DNA from: Escherichia coli
Lineage (GTDB): Bacteria > Pseudomonadota > Gammaproteobacteria > Enterobacterales > Enterobacteriaceae
DNA: 64,000 nt
Reading direction: 5' to 3' (one strand)
NCBI RefSeq assembly: GCF_024223415.1
Contig: NZ_CP100500.1
The notes under the pieces were generated by a model that made no database searches, was not told where the DNA came from, and saw only the letters and a list, made by a program, of their open reading frames with translations. Every line of letters starts with the position of its first letter. Position 1 is the stretch's first letter. The translations under genes were made by a program, and so were the position numbers. This document shows, piece by piece, positions 39,007-54,968 of the stretch.

Positions 39007-40790
39007 ATCTGTCAACGACGGATGAAAAGTGGTTCTTCCGCAACCTGGGTGGAAGAAAATGGATGAAACTTTCTGGCGAACAAGGATCTAAGCTGTTTTA
39101 AGTTATGGGCAACGCAATGCACTCTCTTAAGACACTTCTACAGTTACCTTGCGGATGGCGATGCAGTCGACAAATTATTAGCTCTGACGGTATAACCCTC
39201 CATCTCCACGGAAAACGCAAAACAGCACAATGTCCTGAATGCTTTAAGCGTAGCGACTCTGTTCATAGTTGTCGTCGGCGCCGGATACAGCATCTACCCT
39301 GCTCAGGGCAGACGCTATGGCTTGTATTTTCCGTCCGCCACTGGTACTGCCGTAACCCGGCTTGTTCACGTAAAATTTTTGCCGAGTCGCTTGCTCCCTT
39401 CGCCGGTTCACACCAGCAGTCTTCACAGGCGTTACAAAATTTACAACGTCAACTGGGATTAATAGCTGGAGGTGAGGCTGGAAAACGGGCTGCAACGGCA
39501 GCGGGTCTCCGTTGCAGTGCTGATACTCTTCTTCGCAGGGTATCAATACCCCGGAGACGAAACAGTCAGGCGCGCCTCATGTCGGTATTGATGAGTGGGC
39601 GTGGCATCGGGGCCACTGCTGCGGTATGTTAATAGTCAATCTTGATACTCACCGTCCCCTCGTCCTGCTTCCCGGCCGTGATCAGCGTACGCTGGCGACC
39701 TGGTTCAGAAAATATCCGGAAATACAGGTTGTCTCGCGTGATCGCAGTGGAGTCTATGCGACAGCAGCACGTGAAGGTGCACCTCAGGCCAGACAGGTGG
39801 CCGATCGATGGCACCTGCTAAAAAATATTGGTGATGAGCCTGAACGAATGATGTACAGACATATGCCTCTGATACGTCTTGTTGTCAGAGAGTTATCACT
39901 GAAGAAATCACCTGAGCCAGAAATATCTGTGCCTGTAGCATCGCTCCGTCGTCTGGAACGCCTTAAACAGCACATCCGCAAAAAACGGCATCAGCGTTGG
40001 ACAGAGGTTATGGCCCTGCATAACAAGGGATGTAGTTTCAGGGAAATATCCCGTATTACAGGCCTGTCGCGAGTGACAGTCAGTCGCTGGGTGGGTTCAG
40101 GAACATTCCCTGAAATGTCAACTAGGCCTCCAAAGCGAGGGCTTCTGGACCCATGGAGGGAGTGGTTAAAAGAGCAACGAGAATGTGGTAATTATAACTC
40201 CGGCCGGATATGGCGGGAAATGGTGGCCAGGGGGGTTACAGGCAGTGAAACCATCGTCAGGGATGCTGTTGCCAAATGGCGTAAAGGCTGGATCCCACCG
40301 GTTACTACTGCCGCAAGACTTCCTTCAGTGTCCCGGGTAAGCCGCTGGTTGATGCCCTGGAGAATAATCAGGGGTGAAGAAAATTATGCTTTCCGATTTA
40401 TTAGTCTGATGTGTGAAAAAGAACCGGAGTTGAAAATAGCGCAGCAACTGGTACTCGAGTTCTACCGTATTCTGAAAACCTAAAATAAATCACAGCTAAG
40501 CAGCTGGTTCACTCGGGTCCACGAAAGCGGCTCAGCAGAACTTCGGTGCGTAGCTGCGGGGATGGAAGCTGATGCTGCGGCTATATGTGAGGCAATCAGC
40601 AGTCGCTGGAGTACTGGTGTTGTCGAAGGTCATGTAAATCGCCTGAAGGTGCTGATACGCCAGATGTATGGTCGAGCCGGACTTGAACTACTTAGGCGGA
40701 GGGTAATGAGTCCACTGGCATGAAAATCTTCACCCAGGTTGCGGAAGAGCCACTTTTGCACTGTTCGTGACAGTATGGCCTTTATGTACT
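39007..40790 (+). mobile_element. ISL3-family-like insertion sequence with a frameshifted transposase; ends approximate
   Basis: Imperfect terminal inverted repeats containing GG(T/C)TCTTCCGCAACCTGGGTG at 39031 and (reverse) 40751; transposase split into frames 39105..39632, 39626..40483 and a C-terminal piece ending ...EGHVNRLKVLIRQMYGRAGLELLRRRVM (~40722). Confidence 0.5.
39105..40483 (+). pseudogene. Disrupted ISL3-like transposase (at least two frameshifts)
   Basis: Zinc-finger N-terminus (CPECFKRSDSVHSCRRRRIQHLPCSGQ), ADRWHLLKN segment and HTH-like segment lie in different frames. Confidence 0.5.
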
Positions 40791-40793
40791 CAC

Positions 40794-41095
40794 TTTGTTA
40801 CCGGTAGCTGGATCATCACTACCGTGCTGCAAATGGTGGTGAACAGCATCAATTGTGGAATGAATGTTGCCGAAGCGACCAATGCGCCTCGTTTCCACTA
40901 TCAGTGGTTGCCGGACGAGCTGCGTGTTGAAAAGGGTTTAGTCCGGATACGCTCAAGCTGCTGGATGCAAAAGGTCAGAAAGTGGCGCTGAATGAGGCGA
41001 TGGGCAGCACGCAAAGCATTATGGTTGGGTCGGATGGTGAGTTGTACGGCGCATCCGACTCGCGCTTGGTGGATGATTTAACGGCGGGGTATTAA
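40794..41095 (+). pseudogene. ggt: 3' remnant of a gamma-glutamyltranspeptidase gene with an internal frameshift
   Basis: Translates ...VTGSWIITTVLQMVVNSINCGMNVAEATNAPRFHYQWLPDELRVEKG then, after a frameshift, SPDTLKLLDAKGQKVALNEAMGSTQSIMVGSDGELYGASDSRLVDDLTAGY*. Confidence 0.7.
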
Positions 41096-41134
41096 TTGAC
41101 ATCCCCCGGCGCAATGTGCCGGGGGATAATGGTT

Positions 41135-42169
41135 TTATGCGGTCAATAATCGTCCGGGATTATCGATACAGAGTTTTTTGAGGATCGTTTTATCGACGCC
41201 GCGCTCCGCCAGATAGGCCAGAAAAACATCTGGAACAAATCCCCAGCCATTACCGCCATTTTTAGCCCACATTTGTTTAAGGAAGACATCGTGGCTGAGA
41301 ACAAGCTGATCGGCGTATCCCAACTCAATGAGATGAGCGACGGCATCGGCAGTCTCCTGCACCCCTGGCGCTATTCCCTCTTTCGGGAAGGTAATGTCTA
41401 GGCCAATCATGTCGAATTCCAGCCAGACACCTTTATCAAGCATTTTCCGCTGATACGCCACGTCTTTTCCTGACGGATCCGAGTGTGCGAGAGAGACTTT
41501 ATTTGGCGAGACGCCCATTTCACCTAACACAATGTCGAGTACTTCATCACCGCGACGAAGCCAGCCCGGCATGTGAATATTCATCGCCACATGAGGATTG
41601 TTAATCTGTGCCAGCGAGGCAGCCCGCAAGCTGTTATGCTCGGCTTCGGTAAATGTCGGTGAAACACCTATTTCACCGATCATTCCGGCACGAATATCCG
41701 TATCGCCAATCCCTTGATTCAATTCTTTATCGATCGTTGTCGCCAGTTCATCAACCGTTTTATGAATTCTCTGGCTTTCAAATTTTTCCAGGTAGGGACC
41801 GGAGGAAGCAACAATATTCAGACCTGTTTTTAATGCGACTTCTCGTAATGCCTGCGCATCTCGTCCGATAGACTCAGACCCTGTGGCATCAATAATGGTG
41901 CGACCACCGAGCGAGATAAAGTTATTGATTTCGAAGATCACATCTTCAATAGGTTTGCGGTCCATATTATCAGCGCAGCAATAAGGATCGTGTTTTAATG
42001 CCCACTGGATTTCTGCCGTGACTTTTTTATCAACAAGCCGTTGTGAAAAAGGATAGCAAGGAGCATCCACAACAGAGGAAAGATCGTTGAACAGATGTTC
42101 ATGAGGAAGTGTTAGCCCCATATCTTCACGGGCGACGGGGCCCGTCACAGTTTGTAGATAATCTTTCAT
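41135..42169 (-). CDS. Phosphotriesterase-family (PTE/PHP-like) metal-dependent hydrolase
   Basis: 344 aa; N-terminal GLTLPHEHL metal-binding signature. Confidence 0.7.
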   Translation of the reverse strand: MKDYLQTVTGPVAREDMGLTLPHEHLFNDLSSVVDAPCYPFSQRLVDKKVTAEIQWALKHDPYCCADNMDRKPIEDVIFEINNFISLGGRTIIDATGSESIGRDAQALREVALKTGLNIVASSGPYLEKFESQRIHKTVDELATTIDKELNQGIGDTDIRAGMIGEIGVSPTFTEAEHNSLRAASLAQINNPHVAMNIHMPGWLRRGDEVLDIVLGEMGVSPNKVSLAHSDPSGKDVAYQRKMLDKGVWLEFDMIGLDITFPKEGIAPGVQETADAVAHLIELGYADQLVLSHDVFLKQMWAKNGGNGWGFVPDVFLAYLAERGVDKTILKKLCIDNPGRLLTA

Positions 42170-42171
42170 GA

Positions 42172-43137
42172 TTATACCTCCATTTTCTTCATTGTTTTCG
42201 AGGTTCTGTATTCCGGAATAGTGGTAACAATTGCACCGACCAGTGCAAACAGTGTTCCGATGATCGTGACCAGATAAACGCTATTGCCCAGCGATGGAAT
42301 TAATACGTCAATCAATACTGATCCCAGTAACTGGCCCGCCGTTGAAGCAACCCCCAGCATCAGTAACCCCAGACCTCTGACCAAAATGGCCATTAAACCG
42401 ATAGACATTAGTCCAAGCGGGCCGCCAAGATACATCCACCAGACATCTGGTAATTGAACAGTGACGTGCCCTAATGCGACACGAATAGCAAGCGCTGTGC
42501 CTAAAACACAAAATCCAACGATGAAATTCTAGGTGATTGAAACCAGCATGGATCCCGTAGCTTCAGCTACTTTTGCATTTCCAGCGGGCTGCCATCCTGC
42601 AAGCAAACCAGCTAAGAACGGAAGAATGGCAAGTAAGATGAAAGAGGTAGAATGCCACTGAGGTGACACAACAAAAATCGTAGCAATAACCGCAAATAAT
42701 GCACCGATGATGCAATAAGGGGTAAAGTATTTTTTCTCGTCGACACCGATACCAAAGCGATCGCAAAGTAAACCAGACAGCAATAGCGCGGAGATCAGTG
42801 CGGTTTGAAACGTTGCGACCCCGAGTGCGCTGGCTGATGCGCCTTCAGAAAATACCACCATCGCTCCACAGAGACCGGCAAACCAGTTCCAGAGAGGAAC
42901 TTTTCGGTTTTTAATCAGAGAAGGAATTGCCGCAAATTGTTGCCGGGTTTCTTTTCGCGCCATAATAATAAAAAACATCACGACTAAACCACTGGCAAAG
43001 GAGATAACTGCGCATGCATTACCATCCTGTAACCAGTGACCTAATTGACCATTCACCGCTGATTGCATAGGGGAGAGCATACCCGCAAGAATCGTGGCAA
43101 GCATCCATAAGGGAGTTGAGTACTTATTCTTTTTCAT
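42172..43137 (-). pseudogene. Inner-membrane transporter gene interrupted by one in-frame amber codon (TAG at 42529-42531)
   Basis: ORFs 42529..43137 and 42172..42435 share a frame; membrane-like sequence continues straight across the TAG (...LVSIT*NFIVGFCVLGTALAIRVALGHVTVQLPDVWWMYLGGPLGLM...). Confidence 0.7.
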
Positions 43138-43193
43138 ACATCAATCCTTCTATTATAGTAAATGGAGTAACTGGAGTTACCCCATTATTATTA

Positions 43194-43952
43194 TTATCTT
43201 GCAATATGAGTCAGTATATTTACCCACAACGCGGTATAGAACGGCCAGGACATAAACTGCTGTGTACCCCAGTGCGGTGAACAGTCACTCATAAAGCAGG
43301 CTATTTTCCCGTTGTGATAGTTACCAAAGACCAGTAATGGAGCGTTGTTTATTGTTAATACCACCTCAGCATTTTCTTTAGCGATCGCCCGGTTATAACC
43401 TAGGAAAAAAGGATATTCAGAGAACCCTTTAATAACTGGATGTTCAGGTTGTGATGGCTGTGCAATAACACCCTCTGGTTTTTCGACACGATCGTCACCA
43501 TCTAACATCGTAACCGGGAGCACATCAGCCAGAACTGTATTTTTATAATTGGCTTTTGCTTCAATTCCCATGAATGAGAGATAGCCGCCAATCATCAATA
43601 ACCCACCACCGTTATTCACATATTCTTTAATCAGTTCGAGAGCGTTTGGTTTTATGCGAAGCTGATAAAAAGTATCATTTTGTAGCAGGAAAGTATTACT
43701 ACCAATATCACTAATAACGATGGCATCATATTGTTCTAACTGTGCCACATCTTCAGGGAAGGCAATTTGTACCGTATGTGCTGGCATATAGGTGACATCT
43801 ACCTGACTATTTTTCAGACACTGGAGTAACCAGGTCGCACCTTCTTCATATTTACTTGAGGTAAAACTGTCATATCCTTTTGAATGAATCATATGAATAT
43901 GCCAGGATTCCCCAATAAAGAGCACTTTTAGTGATTTTTTGGTGTTATTCAT
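43194..43952 (-). CDS. Class-I glutamine amidotransferase-like/ThuA-like domain protein
   Basis: 252-aa ORF; fold assignment by weak recollection only. Confidence 0.4.
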   Translation of the reverse strand: MNNTKKSLKVLFIGESWHIHMIHSKGYDSFTSSKYEEGATWLLQCLKNSQVDVTYMPAHTVQIAFPEDVAQLEQYDAIVISDIGSNTFLLQNDTFYQLRIKPNALELIKEYVNNGGGLLMIGGYLSFMGIEAKANYKNTVLADVLPVTMLDGDDRVEKPEGVIAQPSQPEHPVIKGFSEYPFFLGYNRAIAKENAEVVLTINNAPLLVFGNYHNGKIACFMSDCSPHWGTQQFMSWPFYTALWVNILTHIAR

Positions 43953-43965
43953 TCTCTGTCCCTTC

Positions 43966-45180
43966 TTAATGCGTAAAAATAGTTTGCTGATAATGTATAC
44001 TCTGAATTCGATGTATCACAGATTCATGTTCAGGCATGTCGGAAGCATTGCTTGTCTCCACCGCTAGGGATGCAAAGGCGCTGGCATAACACAGTGCTGA
44101 TTCCAGTGATTTTCCTTTCGCAAGTCCTGATGCCAGAGAGCCGTTAAACGCATCCCCGGCTCCTGCCGTATTTTTAACGACCGCTGGAAACGCTGGCGAA
44201 TGAATGAATTTTTTGCCATCAAATGCGAGCGAGCCCTTGCTACCGAGCGTGATAACCGTGTTTTTTACCCCTTTATTGTGGATAGCTTCTGCAGCTCGTT
44301 TAGCTGATTCAAGATCGTGTACGTCTATGCCGGACAGTAAACCAGCTTCTGTTTCATTGGGGGTGATATAATCAACATCCTGAATAAGTTCGTTGACGAT
44401 ATCATTATAGGGTGCCGGGTTAATAATGACCGGGATACTGTTTTTTTGCGCCAATGTGATCGCTTGTTGCAGAGCGGTATAATTTGTTTCGAGCTGCAGA
44501 AGTATGACATCAGAATTAATAATCGCTTCTTTCTGAATAGTTATTTCATCGGACGACATTGTCATGTTGGCACCGGGATAGATCGCAATAACATTATCGC
44601 CAGTACCTTCATTAACAAGGATCGTGGCAGTTCCGGTTTGCGTTTCTTTCGTTTGATAAATTATACTTTTATAAATCTTAGACGAATTCATAAAGTTGAT
44701 CGCATAATCACTAAAGTGATCTGTACCTACTTTTGTTATGAAATAAACATCAGTATCGGCAAAGCTTGCTGCCAGCGCCTGGTTACAGCCTTTTCCCCCC
44801 GGTGAAAATATAAAATTACTTGCCAGAAGCGATTCTCCGATAGTGGGAAGCCTCGGCAAATAACTGATGATATCAACATTAAACGAACCAATAACGCATA
44901 CTTGACTTTTCATAGTTGAGTGGCCTTTTTTTATTCCCTGGGCTGTATCATAATTTTCAAGCGCATAAGCGATTTCATTTTTCGCAATAGTATCAAGCGA
45001 GTCTAGGACGATAAAAGCACCGCCATGACATCGAGTCAGATAGCCAAGCCTGGCAAGTTCATTAAGATCTGAACGAATAGTTTCTTTCGTTACATTGAGG
45101 CTATTGGACAGATCGGATACTTTTACAGAACCGAATTTACTGAGTCGTTTCAATATTTCATGATGGCGTTCAAATTTCAT
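43966..45180 (-). CDS. DeoR-type HTH regulator fused to a PfkB/ribokinase-family sugar kinase
   Basis: 404 aa; N-terminal DeoR HTH (MKFERHHEILKRLSKFGSVKVSDLSNSLNVTKETIRSDLNELARLGYL); C-terminal PfkB signature DTAGAGDAFNG. Confidence 0.7.
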   Translation of the reverse strand: MKFERHHEILKRLSKFGSVKVSDLSNSLNVTKETIRSDLNELARLGYLTRCHGGAFIVLDSLDTIAKNEIAYALENYDTAQGIKKGHSTMKSQVCVIGSFNVDIISYLPRLPTIGESLLASNFIFSPGGKGCNQALAASFADTDVYFITKVGTDHFSDYAINFMNSSKIYKSIIYQTKETQTGTATILVNEGTGDNVIAIYPGANMTMSSDEITIQKEAIINSDVILLQLETNYTALQQAITLAQKNSIPVIINPAPYNDIVNELIQDVDYITPNETEAGLLSGIDVHDLESAKRAAEAIHNKGVKNTVITLGSKGSLAFDGKKFIHSPAFPAVVKNTAGAGDAFNGSLASGLAKGKSLESALCYASAFASLAVETSNASDMPEHESVIHRIQSIHYQQTIFTH

Positions 45181-45288
45181 GCTTCACCTCACTTCAGTTA
45201 CGTTAATATCTATCGATGTATATTGATGTGATAATCACCATAAAGTGGCGGGGAAAAGCAAAAAAAAGCAAAAATAGCCTGAGAAAAG

Positions 45289-45700
45289 GTAAGCGTTAAT
45301 GGAGAATCATATTGATGCTTATTTATTGGTGAGAACTACGTTCCATGGCAGGAGTTCATCAATACGGTTGGAAGGTTATTCCGGCAGTACGCTCAGGATA
45401 TGGCGCAGATACGCTTCCGGATCAATGTCGTTCAGAAGGCAAGTGCCGATAAGCCCATACAACAGTGCACTGCGCTCGCCGCCGAAGAACATAAAGTTTT
45501 TATTTCCGAGACAGATGGCACAAAGGGCTTTTTCCGCGGCATTATGTCTGCCTCCGCCTGACCGTCAACACTGTAATAACAGAGTGCGCCCCACTGATTC
45601 AGTACACAGCTGAACCATTCTCCCAGTCTGGATTTTTGGATAGCGTGGCATTTTTCTCCACCATGCATGCAGTGAGTCCAGTAACAGTTTGCTCTTCTTC
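45289..45700 (-). mobile_element. Degraded IS66-family 3' remnant (terminal IR GTAAGCG at 45289, decayed tnpC 3' region), inverted copy of the 15505-15677 fragment
   Basis: Reverse complement of 45289-45430 aligns base-for-base with 15541-15677 (about 90 percent identity by eye); ORF fragments 45432..45791 and 45565..45840 retain ...LNQWGAL... like tnpC. Confidence 0.7.
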
Positions 45701-47230
45701 TGCCTGACCACAAGATGTGCTGGACTGGTAAACGATGGGGATACCTGCTTACGCGAGAGCAATAAGTGGCTGGCCACAATTCTCGGTACAAAACTCTGCT
45801 GAATAGCAGCGATTTTCCCAGCGTGGTGCGTCGTTTTCATTTTACTGGTTCTAAGTTAACAATTATCTGTTCACTAATGACTACTCTAAAAACTTGTATC
45901 AGGACTATCACTTATTTAAGTGATATTGGTTGTCTGGAGATTCAGGGGGCCAGTCTATAAACTTTTTACAAAAGGATGAATGCAGAAGGTTACTCTAATG
46001 GCCAGAGTGATGACAATGATGGTCAGACGTTGACCTGCAGAAACTGCATTTTAATTGGTCTATAAAGTCTGCAAGAGGAATCAGGGTCAGATCAGTGAGT
46101 CTTATCGCGGCCCGAAGCTATGACTGAAAGAAGGCTGGATACAGAATTGCAACAATTTGGCAATGTCAGAACACAGAAGCTTTGCAAGCAGGTGAAAGGT
46201 TATGTCTAGCAAAAGGAGTATATCAGAATACATCTACTGATGTACAAAACACAACAATAGCTTCATGATATATAAATACGTGATGACGAGTGGTACTCCG
46301 CATGGTTATTTAACTTCTCAGCACCACTAATGATCCTGAGCAACTTCGTATTTGGGCCATTGCCATGGAGTAGAAAGCTGTGTCTGAGAATGCAGAATTT
46401 GAGAAAAGAATTCGCTTTCTTGGAGAGCTTCTGAAAATGGCACGCTAACAACGTTTTGTTAAAAAATGTGAATCACTTGCCGGGGCTGCATTTTCTATTC
46501 GAGGAGAATGTTGACGTAGATATTACAGAAATCTCAGCGCATCAGGATAAACTGCTACCTTAGGTCAACCACCAAAAGAAAATACAATACGTCCAGTTTG
46601 TATGCCTTTAATAACACATCTTCTAAATGTTGAAGAATTATCCCGCCTGCTGAAGAACGTTGCTCTGAGTGTGATAAACCTTTTTATTCTTGATGATGTC
46701 AGCGAGAAGATGGAATATATCCCCGACTGGGTCGTGGTTACCCGGTTAAACATCTGGTGGCGCTAATAAATCTGGCAAGTCACATTCTGTTGAATGCTGT
46801 GACAGTGCCTTACCGAGAGAGCGAAATTGTGGTGTTCTAGTGCATAGTCGCCACCATTCCGGATAATTCTATTGCGTTGTTTTACAAGTTCTTTTACAGC
46901 GCAGATCTGTTGCTGACGTTGAATCAATAGCCTGGATTTCAGAACACAATGCCCGTTTGCTGGTTGGTCCGGCAGTAGCATTAATTCATTATCTGAATGA
47001 AATGTGTCAATCCACAGAAACCGCTGTCAATGACACATTTTGTCGGACGTTAACACGAGAAAGTCTGGCTATTCCGTAATGCCATCTTATTTCGTAATGG
47101 ATTGAGAATGCTGGATTTTTAATTATATTACGCGCAGTATTAATCGCGTAAATGTTTTGCGGTCAGCAACGGTGGGGGATCCATTGTTCTGTTCAATGAA
47201 TACCATCATACATTTGAATCAGGAGTCGGT

Positions 47231-50659: not shown

Positions 50660-50735
50660 TGGCTCCTCTGACTGGACTCGAACCAGTGACATACGGATTA
50701 ACAGTCCGCCGTTCTACCGACTGAACTACAGAGGA
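50660..50735 (-). tRNA. asnV: tRNA-Asn (anticodon GUU)
   Basis: Reverse complement is TCCTCTGTAGTTCAGTCGGTAGAACGGCGGACTGTTAATCCGTATGTCACTGGTTCGAGTCCAGTCAGAGGAGCCA; -35 TTGACA / -10 TAATAT upstream on minus strand. Confidence 0.95.
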
Positions 50736-50990
50736 ATCGTGTGAACGGGGCGCATATTAATGGCAGTGCATGGTGATGTCAAAGGGTGAAATGCATTTTT
50801 TTGTTTGTTTGCTGCCAATTTCAACAAAGTGGTGAGCTTTCAATCTTATTGGGTAATGAACCATCGTGGTGCATACCCTCCTTTTATAGGGCAGGTGAAT
50901 GCGACTGCAGATAAAAAGAGCCAATGACGAATCTATCATAATCTCTTATTTGACAGTTGGTTAGCTTGCGCATCAACGCCAAAATAGAAC

Positions 50991-51006
50991 TGGCAAGCAT
51001 CTTGCA
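50991..51006 (+). promoter_or_regulatory. Sigma-54-type promoter element upstream of nac
   Basis: TGGCAagcatcTTGCA matches GG-N10-GC, about 55 bp upstream of nac ATG. Confidence 0.7.
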
Positions 51007-51061
51007 TTCTGGTTGTAAGTAATGGCGGCACTTGGGCCGACTCTTAAAAACCGGAGGCAAC

Positions 51062-51979
51062 ATGAACTTCAGACGCCTGAAATACTTCGTAAAAATTGTA
51101 GATATTGGTAGCCTGACCCAGGCTGCTGAAGTATTGCATATCGCACAACCAGCGCTCAGCCAGCAGGTTGCCACACTGGAAGGTGAGTTTAATCAACAAC
51201 TTTTGATTCGCACAAAACGGGGCGTTACGCCAACTGACGCCGGAAAAATTCTCTATACCCATGCGCGGGCCATTTTACGTCAGTGTGAGCAGGCCCAACT
51301 GGCGGTGCATAACGTTGGTCAGGCATTATCGGGGCAAGTCTCGATTGGCTTTGCGCCAGGAACCGCTGCGTCATCCATCACCATGCCCTTATTACAGGCG
51401 GTTCGCGCTGAATTCCCGGAGGTCGTTATCTATCTTCATGAAAATAGCGGTGCAGTGCTTAACGAAAAACTGATAAATCACCAACTCGATATGGCGGTGA
51501 TTTATGAGCATTCCCCTGTGGCTGGTGTATCCAGTCAGGCTTTACTGAAAGAAGATCTTTTCCTGGTAGGGACTCAAGATTGTCCGGGGCAAAGCGTTGA
51601 TGTTAATGCTATTGCGCAAATGAACCTCTTTCTTCCCAGTGATTACAGTGCTGTTAGACTTCGTGTTGATGAGGCTTTTTCCCTACGGCGACTCACGGCA
51701 AAAGTCATTGGTGAAATTGAGTCTATTGCCACGCTTACCGCAGCGATTGCCAGCGGCATGGGCGTTGCAGTATTACCCGAATCGGCCGCGCGTTCGTTAT
51801 GTGGCGCAGTAAACGGGTGGATGTCACGCATTACCACACCTTCCATGAGTCTCTCTTTGTCATTAAATTTACCCGCCAGAGCGAACTTATCACCACAGGC
51901 ACAGGCAGTGAAAGAGTTGTTAATGTCAGTGATGAGTTCTCCAGTGATGGAAAAAAGGCAGTGGCAATTGGTGAGCTAA
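51062..51979 (+). CDS. nac: Nitrogen assimilation control protein (LysR family)
   Basis: ORF 51032..51979; 305-aa product from MNFRRLKYFVKIVDIGSLTQAAEVLHIAQPALSQQV. Confidence 0.93.
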   Translation: MNFRRLKYFVKIVDIGSLTQAAEVLHIAQPALSQQVATLEGEFNQQLLIRTKRGVTPTDAGKILYTHARAILRQCEQAQLAVHNVGQALSGQVSIGFAPGTAASSITMPLLQAVRAEFPEVVIYLHENSGAVLNEKLINHQLDMAVIYEHSPVAGVSSQALLKEDLFLVGTQDCPGQSVDVNAIAQMNLFLPSDYSAVRLRVDEAFSLRRLTAKVIGEIESIATLTAAIASGMGVAVLPESAARSLCGAVNGWMSRITTPSMSLSLSLNLPARANLSPQAQAVKELLMSVMSSPVMEKRQWQLVS

Positions 51980-52080
51980 GCGTTATATCGGGATGGAATA
52001 AGATGCGGGTTTTTATTATTTGTTATGCCGGGCATTAGACTTTAACAATAACGGAAAATCTGAACTGCCCGGAGTTTACC

Positions 52081-53031
52081 GTGAATTTCCAACAACTAAA
52101 GATAATCCGCGAGGCTGCACGTCAGGATTACAACCTGACAGAGGTTGCGAATATGCTTTTTACCTCACAGTCCGGCGTCAGCCGTCATATTCGGGAACTG
52201 GAGGATGAACTTGGCATCGAAATATTTGTTCGACGAGGTAAGCGACTGCTGGGCATGACTGAACCGGGCAAAGCATTACTGGTCATTGCTGAACGTATTC
52301 TGAATGAAGCCAGTAATGTTCGTCGGCTTGCAGACCTGTTTACCAACGATACGTCTGGCGTTCTCACTATTGCAACGACGCATACTCAGGCACGTTATAG
52401 TTTGCCAGAGGTCATTAAATCTTTTCGCGAACTTTTCCCGGAGGTTCGGCTCGAGCTAATCCAGGGGACGCCACAGGAAATTGCGACGTTGTTGCATAAT
52501 GGTGAAGCTGATATTGGTATCGCCAGCGAGCGTTTGAGTAATGACCCGCAGCTCGTCGCCTTCCCGTGGTTTCGTTGGCACCATAGTTTGCTTGTTCCAC
52601 TCGATCATCCCTTGACGCAAATTACACCATTGACGCTGGAATCAATAGCGAAGTGGCCGTTAATCACTTACCGACAGGGGATTACGGGGCGCTCACGTAT
52701 TGATGACGCATTTGCCCGCAAAGGTTTGCTGGCAGATATTGTATTAAGTGCGCAGGATTCTGATGTCATTAAAACCTATGTTGCTCTTGGGCTTGGGATC
52801 GGAATAGTTGCCGAACAATCCAGCGGTGAACAAGAGGAAAAGAATTTAATCCGCCTGGATACGCGGCATCTTTTTGATGCTAATACTGTCTGGTTGGGAC
52901 TGAAGCGAGGACAACTTCAGCGTAACTATGTCTGGCGCTTTCTGGAACTTTGTAATGCAGGGCTTTCAGTTGAGGATATCAAGCGGCAGGTGATGGAAAA
53001 CAGTGAAGAGGAAATTGATTATCAGATATAG
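52081..53031 (+). CDS. cbl: CysB-like LysR-family regulator Cbl
   Basis: 316-aa ORF MNFQQLKIIREAARQDYNLTEVANMLFTSQSGVSRHIRELE... Confidence 0.93.
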   Translation: MNFQQLKIIREAARQDYNLTEVANMLFTSQSGVSRHIRELEDELGIEIFVRRGKRLLGMTEPGKALLVIAERILNEASNVRRLADLFTNDTSGVLTIATTHTQARYSLPEVIKSFRELFPEVRLELIQGTPQEIATLLHNGEADIGIASERLSNDPQLVAFPWFRWHHSLLVPLDHPLTQITPLTLESIAKWPLITYRQGITGRSRIDDAFARKGLLADIVLSAQDSDVIKTYVALGLGIGIVAEQSSGEQEEKNLIRLDTRHLFDANTVWLGLKRGQLQRNYVWRFLELCNAGLSVEDIKRQVMENSEEEIDYQI

Positions 53032-53068
53032 CAAAAAGCCCGCTATAAAAGCGGGCTTTTCAGAAATT

Positions 53069-53144
53069 TGGCTCCTCTGACTGGACTCGAACCAGTGACA
53101 TACGGATTAACAGTCCGCCGTTCTACCGACTGAACTACAGAGGA
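53069..53144 (-). tRNA. asnU: tRNA-Asn (anticodon GUU)
   Basis: Identical 76-nt tRNA-Asn sequence on minus strand; terminator hairpin of cbl directly upstream at 53034-53062. Confidence 0.95.
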
Positions 53145-53304
53145 ATCGCTGTTGAGGCACATCTTAACGGCGAAAAATCTTTTGTCAAACCCGATTTTTA
53201 ATTTTCCCAACTGTTTGCCGTTTCTATCAACAGTTTGTTGCATTTGCAGACAATTTGTTGGCGAAAATCTTTGCAGCTTTGCTGATTCTCCCTCATTATT
53301 TGAA

Positions 53305-54792
53305 ATGTGGTTTCACTTTCTGCAATTAAGGTCGGCTTTGAATATCTCCTCTGCTTTACGCCAGGTTGTTCACGGCACTCGCTGGCACGCTAAACGCAAG
53401 AGCTACAAAGTGTTGTTCTGGCGCGAGATAACCCCGCTTGCTGTTCCTATCTTCATGGAGAATGCCTGTGTCCTGTTGATGGGGGTTCTGAGCACTTTTC
53501 TGGTCAGCTGGCTGGGAAAAGATGCGATGGCCGGCGTGGGATTGGCGGACAGCTTCAATATGGTCATTATGGCTTTTTTTGCTGCTATCGATCTTGGTAC
53601 TACTGTCGTTGTGGCATTTAGTCTCGGTAAGCGGGATCGACGACGAGCGAGGGTGGCGACGCGGCAGTCATTGGTGATCATGACGTTGTTTGCCGTACTG
53701 TTGGCAACGATTATTCATCATTTTGGCGAGCAAATTATTGATTTTGTCGCGGGTGATGCCACGACAGAAGTTAAAGCACTGGCGTTGACTTATCTGGAGC
53801 TGACGGTACTCAGTTATCCAGCAGCTGCCATCACTTTGATTGGTAGCGGGGCACTTCGTGGTGCAGGGAATACGAAAATACCGCTACTGATTAACGGTAG
53901 CCTGAATATTCTTAATATTATTATTAGCGGCATATTGATTTACGGCCTTTTCTCCTGGCCGGGACTGGGATTTGTCGGGGCTGGGTTGGGGTTAACCATT
54001 TCTCGTTATATTGGCGCAGTGGCAATTTTGTGGGTGCTGGCGATTGGTTTTAATCCTGCGCTAAGGATTTCGTTAAAGAGCTATTTTAAACCGCTGAATT
54101 TTAGCATTATCTGGGAAGTCATGGGGATTGGTATTCCCGCGAGTGTCGAATCAGTGTTATTTACCAGTGGTCGGTTATTAACCCAAATGTTCGTTGCCGG
54201 GATGGGGACCAGTGTTATTGCCGGAAATTTTATCGCGTTTTCAATTGCGGCTCTTATCAACTTACCCGGAAGTGCGCTCGGCTCTGCTTCTACGATCATT
54301 ACAGGCCGAAGGTTGGGTGTAGGACAGATAGCGCAAGCAGAGATTCAGTTGCGGCATGTGTTCTGGCTTTCCACTCTTGGATTAACGGCCATCGCCTGGC
54401 TAACGGCTCCCTTTGCCGGGGTTATGGCATCGTTTTACACCCAGGATCCACAGGTTAAACATGTCGTTGTGATTCTGATTTGGCTAAATGCTTTATTTAT
54501 GCCTATTTGGTCTGCCTCATGGGTGCTACCCGCTGGATTTAAGGGTGCTCGCGATGCACGTTACGCCATGTGGGTTTCTATGTTGAGCATGTGGGGTTGC
54601 CGGGTTGTAGTCGGTTATGTGCTGGGAATCATGCTTGGCTGGGGTGTGGTTGGTGTCTGGATGGGAATGTTTGCCGACTGGGCTGTGCGGGCCGTGCTGT
54701 TTTACTGGCGAATGGTTACTGGACGTTGGCTGTGGAAATATCCTCGACCTGAGCCGCAAAAGTGTGAAAAAAAGCCAGTTGTGTCGGAATAA
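53305..54792 (+). CDS. yeeO: MATE-family multidrug/flavin efflux transporter YeeO
   Basis: ORF 53152..54792; 495-aa product from MWFHFLQLRSALN (53305); multi-TM. Confidence 0.85.
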   Translation: MWFHFLQLRSALNISSALRQVVHGTRWHAKRKSYKVLFWREITPLAVPIFMENACVLLMGVLSTFLVSWLGKDAMAGVGLADSFNMVIMAFFAAIDLGTTVVVAFSLGKRDRRRARVATRQSLVIMTLFAVLLATIIHHFGEQIIDFVAGDATTEVKALALTYLELTVLSYPAAAITLIGSGALRGAGNTKIPLLINGSLNILNIIISGILIYGLFSWPGLGFVGAGLGLTISRYIGAVAILWVLAIGFNPALRISLKSYFKPLNFSIIWEVMGIGIPASVESVLFTSGRLLTQMFVAGMGTSVIAGNFIAFSIAALINLPGSALGSASTIITGRRLGVGQIAQAEIQLRHVFWLSTLGLTAIAWLTAPFAGVMASFYTQDPQVKHVVVILIWLNALFMPIWSASWVLPAGFKGARDARYAMWVSMLSMWGCRVVVGYVLGIMLGWGVVGVWMGMFADWAVRAVLFYWRMVTGRWLWKYPRPEPQKCEKKPVVSE

Positions 54793-54845
54793 ACGACAAA
54801 GTGCAGATTATTTCAGCAAACGATTTCAAATTTAAAAAACAGGCT

Positions 54846-54874
54846 TTGACATTGTGGATGAGCGTCGCTAATAT
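54846..54874 (+). promoter_or_regulatory. Sigma-70 promoter of tRNA-Asn (TTGACA-17-TAATAT)
   Basis: TTGACAttgtggatgagcgtcgcTAATAT about 19 bp upstream of the tRNA 5' end. Confidence 0.75.
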
Positions 54875-54892
54875 TCGCCTCGTTCTCACGAT

Positions 54893-54968
54893 TCCTCTGT
54901 AGTTCAGTCGGTAGAACGGCGGACTGTTAATCCGTATGTCACTGGTTCGAGTCCAGTCAGAGGAGCCA
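54893..54968 (+). tRNA. asnW: tRNA-Asn (anticodon GUU)
   Basis: TCCTCTGTAGTTCAGTCGGTAGAACGGCGGACTGTTAATCCGTATGTCACTGGTTCGAGTCCAGTCAGAGGAGCCA. Confidence 0.95.

Follow-up and report, generated by a model that had tools for sequence, protein, structure and literature searches.

The rikA cluster of Escherichia coli: an island-borne copy whose YdcZ-type transporter gene carries a common, inherited amber codon

Introduction

The closest described relative of the locus studied here is the rikA cluster of Salmonella enterica. Its first gene, rikA (STM3547), encodes a ribokinase with the catalytic residue D343, and the sole form of the protein detected under the conditions tested was initiated at Met90 and had a mass of 35 kDa (PMC13432705; McCormick, Jabbar & Escalante-Semerena, Mol Microbiol 2026). 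The gene set rikA-STM3548-STM3549-STM3550 is conserved in Citrobacter, Escherichia, Budvicia and Proteus, its last three genes being uncharacterised; the authors consider the ribokinase activity a possible moonlighting function, and their paper mentions neither an operator nor pseudogenes (PMC13432705). Here we describe a four-gene islet (minus strand, 45180-41135) in a stretch of 64,000 nucleotides (nt) of E. coli DNA (contig NZ_CP100500.1 of assembly GCF_024223415.1; hereafter the window). Overall, it is very probably the E. coli copy of this enterobacterial cluster, borne on an island together with a stub of ggt, and its permease has been lost through one inherited nonsense change.

What the genes are, the nonsense change, how often each allele occurs, the haplotype common to the TAG loci sampled and the synteny are established. 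Both the cluster and the transporter pseudogene are already known, and nothing indicates recoding or any other unusual mechanism. For STM3548, STM3549 and STM3550 we found no literature besides the 2026 RikA paper. The product of the fourth gene has a described ortholog in Proteus mirabilis, Pmi1525, which is reported, as cited in PMC5341072, to be a metal-dependent esterase of the phosphotriesterase (PTE) family that promiscuously hydrolyses esters and methylphosphonate esters; the Pmi1525 and Rsp3690 relatives are promiscuous esterases (PMC5341072).

Results and discussion

The islet and its Salmonella counterpart

A preliminary description of the region, made from the letters of the window alone, had proposed an AT-rich cluster of four minus-strand genes at 41135-45180. 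The listing of open reading frames (ORFs) and their translation confirmed four consecutive genes in these limits, and Pfam and the guanine-plus-cytosine (GC) content agreed. The rikA-like gene (43966-45180) is intact and encodes 404 amino acids (aa), with Pfam matches to HTH_DeoR at residues 5-56 and to PfkB at residues 92-382. It is followed by an intact PF07090 (GATase1_like) gene orthologous to STM3548 (43194-43952; 252 aa, Pfam E 1e-111), by a pseudogene for a YdcZ-type drug/metabolite transporter (DMT) orthologous to STM3549 (42172-43137; 321 codons, matching DMT_YdcZ in two stretches), and by an intact PTE-family hydrolase gene orthologous to STM3550 (41135-42169; 344 aa, PF02126). The GC content is 41.6% in rikA, 39.9% in the PF07090 gene, 46.4% in the transporter gene and 47.5% in the PTE gene, and 43.8% for the islet as a whole vs 50.2% in the remaining window; just 6% of 4-kb windows are lower than the islet. 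The AT-rich stretch runs on to ~47250, through debris of insertion sequences (IS).

The homology search that the preliminary description had called for identified the cluster: the set of an HTH::PfkB fusion, PF07090, DMT_YdcZ and PTE genes on one strand matches the Salmonella rikA(STM3547)-STM3548-STM3549-STM3550 cluster in content and order. DNA identity to the Salmonella locus is 75.8% across window positions 45275-40812, that is, from ~95 nt 5' of rikA to the last ~290 nt of ggt. The proposed limits therefore hold for the four genes, and the homologous block is slightly larger (~40803-45275), since it takes in the 3' relic of ggt at one end and ~95 nt of the promoter region at the other. 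Many E. coli genomes carry this 4.4-kb block in their chromosomal DNA with an identity of 99% or more.

The islet agrees with the cluster of Salmonella enterica LT2 in its four genes, their order and their orientation, the proteins being 80-92% identical; in LT2, too, the same T-rich element lies upstream of rikA and the PTE gene converges on ggt. The two differ in setting and state. In Salmonella and Citrobacter the cluster occupies a chromosomal site between yhhY and ggt with all four genes intact, whereas in E. coli it lies on an IS-bounded island near cobUST with only a stub of ggt, and in this strain the transporter gene carries a nonsense codon.

The transporter and its amber codon

Across its 321 codons, the transporter frame (43137-42172) is interrupted only once, by a TAG at codon 203 (42529-42531, minus strand), where TGG (Trp203) has become TAG through a G-to-A change at 42530. 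The preliminary description had reported this in-frame TAG with membrane-like sequence continuing on either side, and both the sequence and its homologues bear this out. Both repeats match the PF04657 (DMT_YdcZ) profile, with 151.7 bits vs a cutoff of 24, and hydropathy gives a two-repeat protein of about ten hydrophobic segments. The protein thus resembles YdcZ-type DMT proteins in that both halves match, and differs from them in its fused two-repeat form, here cut at codon 203. The preliminary description had also asked whether profile searches might separate the two halves into unrelated proteins. Full-length homologues of 315-339 aa cover both, which rules out two separate or unrelated genes.

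At the position of the TAG, Trp is found in 11/11 full-length homologues (motif SITWNFIVGF) from E. coli to Lactobacillaceae, the alignment covering E. coli, Citrobacter, Salmonella, Klebsiella, Pectobacterium, Proteus, Anaerobiospirillum, Bifidobacterium and Lentilactobacillus. A recoded position does not fit this pattern: the homologues all have TGG, as do 70% of E. coli copies. The Prokaryotic Genome Annotation Pipeline (PGAP) lists the gene as a 'DMT family transporter, internal stop' pseudogene in strains identical or nearly so to the window, and the intact allele is represented by WP_000739817.1 in ATCC 25922. A tRNA scan of the whole window found three tRNA-Asn genes only and no suppressor. 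With an invariant Trp replaced by a stop, the PGAP call and no suppressor tRNA in the window, the proposal that the transporter is knocked out stands, as far as can be judged from the DNA.

We located the stop within the protein by hydropathy and by the internal repeat, in which repeat 1 aligns to repeat 2 (W83 with W234) at 24% identity. Codon 203 falls where the second helix of repeat 2 begins, which ruled out a stop at the boundary between the repeats. The product keeps repeat 1 plus one helix, about six of the ten helices, and loses four of the five helices of repeat 2; the next in-frame start past the TAG is Met235. It could be asked whether the 202-aa N-terminal product works as a homodimeric half-transporter, in the manner of single-domain YdcZ proteins. 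DMT proteins go back to a duplicated unit of five helices, the entire 140-position YdcZ profile is matched by repeat 1, and a protein of this 202-aa form has been called in 685 member sequences (P0109). We nevertheless regard a working half-transporter as very unlikely. The stop falls inside repeat 2 and not at the repeat boundary, a start at Met235 leaves no complete second half, the fused ten-helix form has been kept at all 60-plus homologous loci, and repeats that are 24% identical make repeat 1 an unlikely stand-in for repeat 2.

The transporter gene of the window carries a second damaging change, R142C (CGC to TGC; 42712-42714, minus strand), which affects an almost invariant Arg; of the sampled loci, only that of the TAG-bearing strain Combat11I9 has it too. 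A private synonymous single-nucleotide polymorphism (SNP) lies at 42490, where Leu216 is CTT vs CTA in all sampled E. coli.

Frequency and history of the nonsense allele

The frequency of the nonsense allele was determined from exact matches to 61-mers centred on codon 203 in 5426 complete E. coli genomes. The islet is present in 2037 of these (2038 records). Codon 203 is TGG in 1428 records, TAG in 599 and neither in 11, so that about 29% of islet-bearing complete E. coli genomes carry the TAG. In a comparison of 21 sampled loci and the window, three further bases (42661T, 42281G and 41720T) were common to all 10 TAG loci sampled. Every TAG copy in this comparison sits on one haplotype, which points to a single origin. 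The TAG is an inherited polymorphism and a common allele that is not peculiar to this strain. These data also bear on whether the TAG might be a sequencing or assembly error, as a codon one base away from a sense codon could be. The identical TAG 61-mer occurs in 599 independently assembled complete genomes and is linked to three other haplotype-specific SNPs, leaving an error with next to no probability.

Lesions are not confined to the transporter. Within the TAG clade, rikA is frameshifted in strains TOE3 and EC130, IS3 insertions are present in A14 and NCTC9064, and in CM2010-0578 an IS1-mediated deletion has removed rikA and half of the PF07090 gene. Among TGG strains, one fully intact haplotype is shared by four sampled strains and ATCC 25922, S1-IND-02-A and CAVP814 are also intact, and one strain has an IS5 inside the PF07090 gene. 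Furthermore, a second amber codon was found in rikA itself, at codon 81 (CAG to TAG, 44938-44940), in 220/1967 E. coli records; it was seen in sampled loci L082, L083, L094 and L095. It sits between the helix-turn-helix (HTH) domain and Met90, and would therefore abolish the HTH-containing isoform but could leave the Met90 kinase isoform. Twelve records taken at even steps of the ranking comprised six with all genes intact, three with the transporter TAG, two with the rikA amber and one with an IS5. Such repeated lesions across the islet indicate that the cluster is dispensable and eroding in E. coli; decay reaches beyond the uptake step and involves several independent inactivations.

The same observations speak to readthrough of the TAG, by a suppressor tRNA or by near-cognate decoding, which would yield enough full-length permease for the module to work. 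The other three genes of the islet are intact here, and past the TAG the reading frame continues without a stop and closely resembles the intact allele, as readthrough would have it. Amber suppressors are, however, rare in natural isolates; this allele has been inherited by 599 genomes of diverse natural isolates, and the only tRNA genes in the window are those for tRNA-Asn. The TAG clade has also gathered more lesions (R142C, IS insertions and frameshifts), as expected after loss of function. We consider readthrough on a useful scale extremely unlikely, and retain a nonsense allele that has lost its function and was then inherited.

The HTH-kinase fusion

The window protein has the hallmarks of RikA: a length of 404 aa, an N-terminal DeoR-type HTH, Asp343 in GAGD (44152-44154) and an internal Met90 (44911-44913). 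It is 80-82% identical to Salmonella RikA. The fusion of a DeoR HTH to a PfkB kinase domain had been recognised correctly in the preliminary description, and the Pfam matches corroborate it; the kinase motif given there as DTAGAGDAFNG actually reads NTAGAGDAFNG. Ribose kinase activity has been shown for the Salmonella protein (PMC13432705), and the E. coli ortholog may share it. The scores of the window protein remain below the cutoffs of both NCBIfam equivalog models for the ribokinase RbsK, at 284.2 bits vs 299.65 for TIGR02152 and 253.4 bits vs 341 for NF008353. By these profiles RikA is a PfkB subfamily related to, and distinct from, RbsK ribokinase.

Other kinases with an N-terminal DNA-binding domain offer a comparison. 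E. coli YeiI combines an HTH with PfkB, as RikA does, and the match of the window protein to the NCBIfam model of YeiI, PRK09954, is weak (43.6 bits). NadR, which joins an HTH to nicotinamide mononucleotide adenylyltransferase and ribosylnicotinamide kinase domains, is alike in architecture. RikA differs from both in that it is an equivalog of neither and in that its HTH, predicted to bind DNA, is of the DeoR type.

Two lines of comparison bear on whether the full-length fusion matters. In the divergent pairs tested, the ratio of nonsynonymous to synonymous substitution rates (dN/dS) of the HTH region was 0.06-0.25, which places the RikA HTH under purifying selection. Moreover, rikA of Proteus and Providencia (loci L013, L019 and L033) encodes Ala, Val or Leu where Salmonella has Met90, so that the kinase domain there must come from the HTH fusion or from a non-ATG start. 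Together, the low dN/dS and the replacement of Met90 indicate that the fusion is a real, selected protein, at least in Proteus and Providencia.

A T-rich element upstream of rikA

A T-rich, promoter- or operator-like element of 20 nt, TTTTTGCTTTTTTTTGCTTT, lies at 45255-45274 on the minus strand; the ATG of rikA follows 75-94 nt downstream. The window contains a single copy (0 expected from shuffles), which overlaps a putative -35 hexamer, TTGCTT. An alignment of 15 upstream regions of Enterobacterales, ranging from E. coli to Providencia, recovers the element between flanks that cannot otherwise be aligned. It is present upstream of every HTH::PfkB locus with an upstream region to examine, in one case (L011) recognised only through the alignment; positions elsewhere include L004 5862, L013 5756 and 5787, and L014 4867, among others. 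Several Proteus and Providencia loci carry two copies, 31 nt apart. By contrast, it was found in none of the ~35 homologous loci with LacI or AraC regulators. A T-rich element found only with the HTH-kinase fusion appears to be new.

The element may be read in two ways, as a direct-repeat candidate operator for the RikA HTH or as a -35/UP region. Its 3' end makes a plausible -35 hexamer, 18 nt from a -10-like hexamer that is conserved in position. A scan for promoter consensus sequences was uninformative, with 10 sites vs 9.5 expected, and an Rfam scan of 40600-45800 at E<=1 returned neither a riboswitch nor any other RNA that might have pointed to a ligand. The purifying selection on the HTH and the strict co-occurrence of the element argue that the full-length fusion is real, despite the Met90-only isoform seen in Salmonella.

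The PF07090 protein and the hydrolase

The second protein matches the structure of STM3548 (PDB 2gk3) with E 7e-145. The preliminary description had called it ThuA/GATase1-like; the GATase1-like part holds through PF07090, and the ThuA part does not, since PF06283 gave no match at E<=0.01. Among 67 PF07090 homologues, the residues conserved are Asp, Glu, His, Trp, Tyr and Ser, and no Cys is conserved at >=95%, as the nucleophile of the Cys-His-Glu triad in a class I glutamine amidotransferase would have to be. The name 'glutamine amidotransferase' therefore appears to be a misnomer, and the annotation is probably mistaken. Neither the PF07090 protein nor the transporter is covered by an NCBIfam model. 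A Salmonella paralogue of the PF07090 protein, STM1381, has a solved structure (PDB 3soz).

The fourth protein was proposed to be a phosphotriesterase-family hydrolase with an LPHEHL motif, and its PF02126 match (E 9e-47, 160.3 bits) and the sequence LTLPHEHLF confirm this. The metal ligands H23, H25, H199, H229 and D294 are conserved at >=95% in 49 homologues, in keeping with membership of the PTE family. It is 73% identical to the Proteus protein and matches the Pmi1525 structures (PDB 3rhg/4qsf) with E 5e-174; besides this orthology, the two share the four-gene context, found also in Proteus, and the His/His/His/His/Asp ligands. It is not the E. coli Php equivalog, scoring 108.6 bits vs a cutoff of 486 for NF007373. 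The PTE gene has its own GGAGG ribosome-binding site within the 3' end of the transporter gene. A strong, GC-rich hairpin of 12 pairs (41101-41127), which resembles a bidirectional terminator, separates the 3' end of the PTE gene from the ggt relic.

A recurring core module

We compared 64 GTDB species loci and others, ~66 loci or species in all, from three phyla. At every complete locus the order is GATase1_like, DMT_YdcZ, hydrolase. The hydrolase is a PTE in Proteobacteria and most Actinomycetota. In Lactobacillaceae and Bifidobacterium (L007, L009, L041-L055, L071, L074 and L075) the PTE position is taken by a CBAH-family (choloylglycine hydrolase-like) N-terminal nucleophile hydrolase, a non-homologous replacement. 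The regulator varies as well, being a DeoR-HTH::PfkB fusion in Enterobacterales, AraC in Succinivibrionaceae and LacI in Gram-positives. A PfkB kinase is encoded at 35/~66 loci, stand-alone at nine. All-against-all clustering of the neighbouring ORFs of the ~66 loci gave no further conserved partner gene from which the substrate might be read. The true core is the PF07090 protein, the YdcZ permease and a hydrolase, with an exchangeable regulator and interchangeable PTE and CBAH enzymes. This regulator-GATase1_like-YdcZ-hydrolase core, recurring in ~66 species, appears to be new.

At one Succinivibrionaceae locus (L010 10787-14502, on an Anaerobiospirillum-type contig), rpiB and a split transketolase gene lie directly downstream of the AraC, PF07090, transporter and PTE genes; this arrangement was seen at this locus only, and would fit a pentose-phosphate product. 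In a Succinivibrio metagenome-assembled genome (L056 6998-9013), the transporter and the PTE form one continuous ORF, either a natural fusion or an assembly error.

Proposed function

The gene content fits a catabolic module for a sugar conjugate. Regulators of sugar-catabolism types (LacI, AraC, DeoR), the PfkB kinases and the ribokinase activity of RikA are together consistent with sugar utilisation. Of the sugar or lactone module first proposed, the sugar part agrees with these findings and the lactone part finds no support in them. From the genes we infer a direction of transport, a substrate, a regulatory role for the HTH and the T-rich element, and the loss of function, as follows. The permease would import a sugar conjugate that probably contains ribose or another pentose. 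The hydrolase, perhaps together with the PF07090 protein, would free the sugar for phosphorylation by RikA, whose HTH probably also gives it control of the promoter by way of the T-rich element. After the G-to-A change in the Trp203 codon, the product would stop after repeat 1 and one helix, and transport is almost certainly lost. Polarity from the TAG may in addition lower expression of the downstream hydrolase.

The opposite direction of transport gives a different module, one that is not catabolic: YdcZ would export, the cluster would detoxify or secrete, the kinase activity of RikA would be incidental, and loss of the transporter would affect efflux. The Pfam label of PF04657, the promiscuous esterase activity of the Pmi1525 and Rsp3690 relatives (PMC5341072) and the possibly moonlighting ribokinase activity raised by the RikA authors (PMC13432705) could all be accommodated in this way. 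Such a module would less readily account for regulators of the sugar-catabolism types LacI, AraC and DeoR at the homologous loci, for PfkB kinases at 35 of the ~66 loci, nine of them stand-alone, or for the rpiB and transketolase genes that follow one Succinivibrionaceae locus. We judge export unlikely, though not negligibly so, and prefer import of a sugar conjugate.

Some points weigh against our interpretation of the islet as a catabolic cluster with an inherited permease defect. Pfam names YdcZ (PF04657) a 'putative inner membrane exporter'. Only the Met90 isoform of RikA was detected in Salmonella under the conditions tested, so that the regulatory role of the HTH is putative. Some of the frameshifts in the sampled assemblies, including those of TOE3 and EC130, may be sequencing or assembly errors. 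Finally, the exact 101-mer of the window around the TAG site, which includes the SNP at 42490, is matched in 0/5426 genomes.

A joint reading would go further. In it, the islet belongs to a widely transferred catabolic pathway, present in gut and fermentation bacteria of three phyla, that acts on an ester or amide conjugate containing ribose; RikA in its full length is a one-component sensor whose kinase domain reads the sugar and whose HTH binds the TTTTTGC-repeat element and controls the operon; and W203am (29%) and Q81am (11%) are adaptive losses, not neutral decay. As a whole this is a long shot. If the losses were adaptive, possible reasons would be avoidance of the uptake of a toxic analogue, or uncoupling of the kinase from the repressor.

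For the window itself these results carry little weight: the pseudogene is a routine one, and the accessory cluster that contains it has been described before. The pseudogene resembles other lineage-specific nonsense pseudogenes of E. coli accessory islands in its one-base change, clonal inheritance, PGAP flag and further decay, and nothing sets it apart from them. The side results could aid whoever works out the function of rikA-STM3550. E. coli supplies natural, isogenic-like sets for phenotype screens, with all genes intact, permease-null or HTH-truncated.

Borders and origin of the islet

On its left, the islet is bordered by an ISL3-family transposase pseudogene (39105-40723, plus strand; ORFs and PGAP), and on its right by an IS66-family transposase remnant (45376-45714, minus strand; PGAP), homology to Salmonella stopping at 45275. 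The same ISL3 and IS66 borders are found in both TAG and TGG strains, which indicates a single acquisition with mutation afterwards. The patchy presence in 2037/5426 genomes, these borders, the GC content of 43.8% vs 50.2% and a foreign ggt relic all support the horizontal acquisition proposed in the preliminary description.

The relic is the 3' part of ggt (40803-41095, plus strand), convergent with the PTE gene and annotated by PGAP as 'gamma-glutamyltransferase, frameshifted, incomplete'. The neighbours of the cluster in Salmonella and Citrobacter are a gene for a yhhY-like acetyltransferase on one side and a full-length, convergent ggt on the other; the relic mirrors this convergence of PTE and ggt and so marks the gene order of the donor. 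It is ~92% identical to native E. coli ggt and 82-85% identical to that of Salmonella or Citrobacter, and these values suggest a donor nearer Escherichia than Salmonella or Citrobacter. Among GTDB species representatives we found no such donor and no other Escherichia species with the cluster.

The islet is within a degenerate genomic island near cobUST and asn tRNA genes. Three tRNA-Asn genes lie within 4.3 kb (50660-54968), downstream of cobUST and ldtA, a typical hotspot of island integration. Elsewhere, in Klebsiella oxytoca (L005 and L006, 10162-16110), the cluster adjoins relaxase, NikA-like, DUF932 and hok genes, which places it on a mobilisable element or next to one; two ORFs make up the split rikA homologue of L005.

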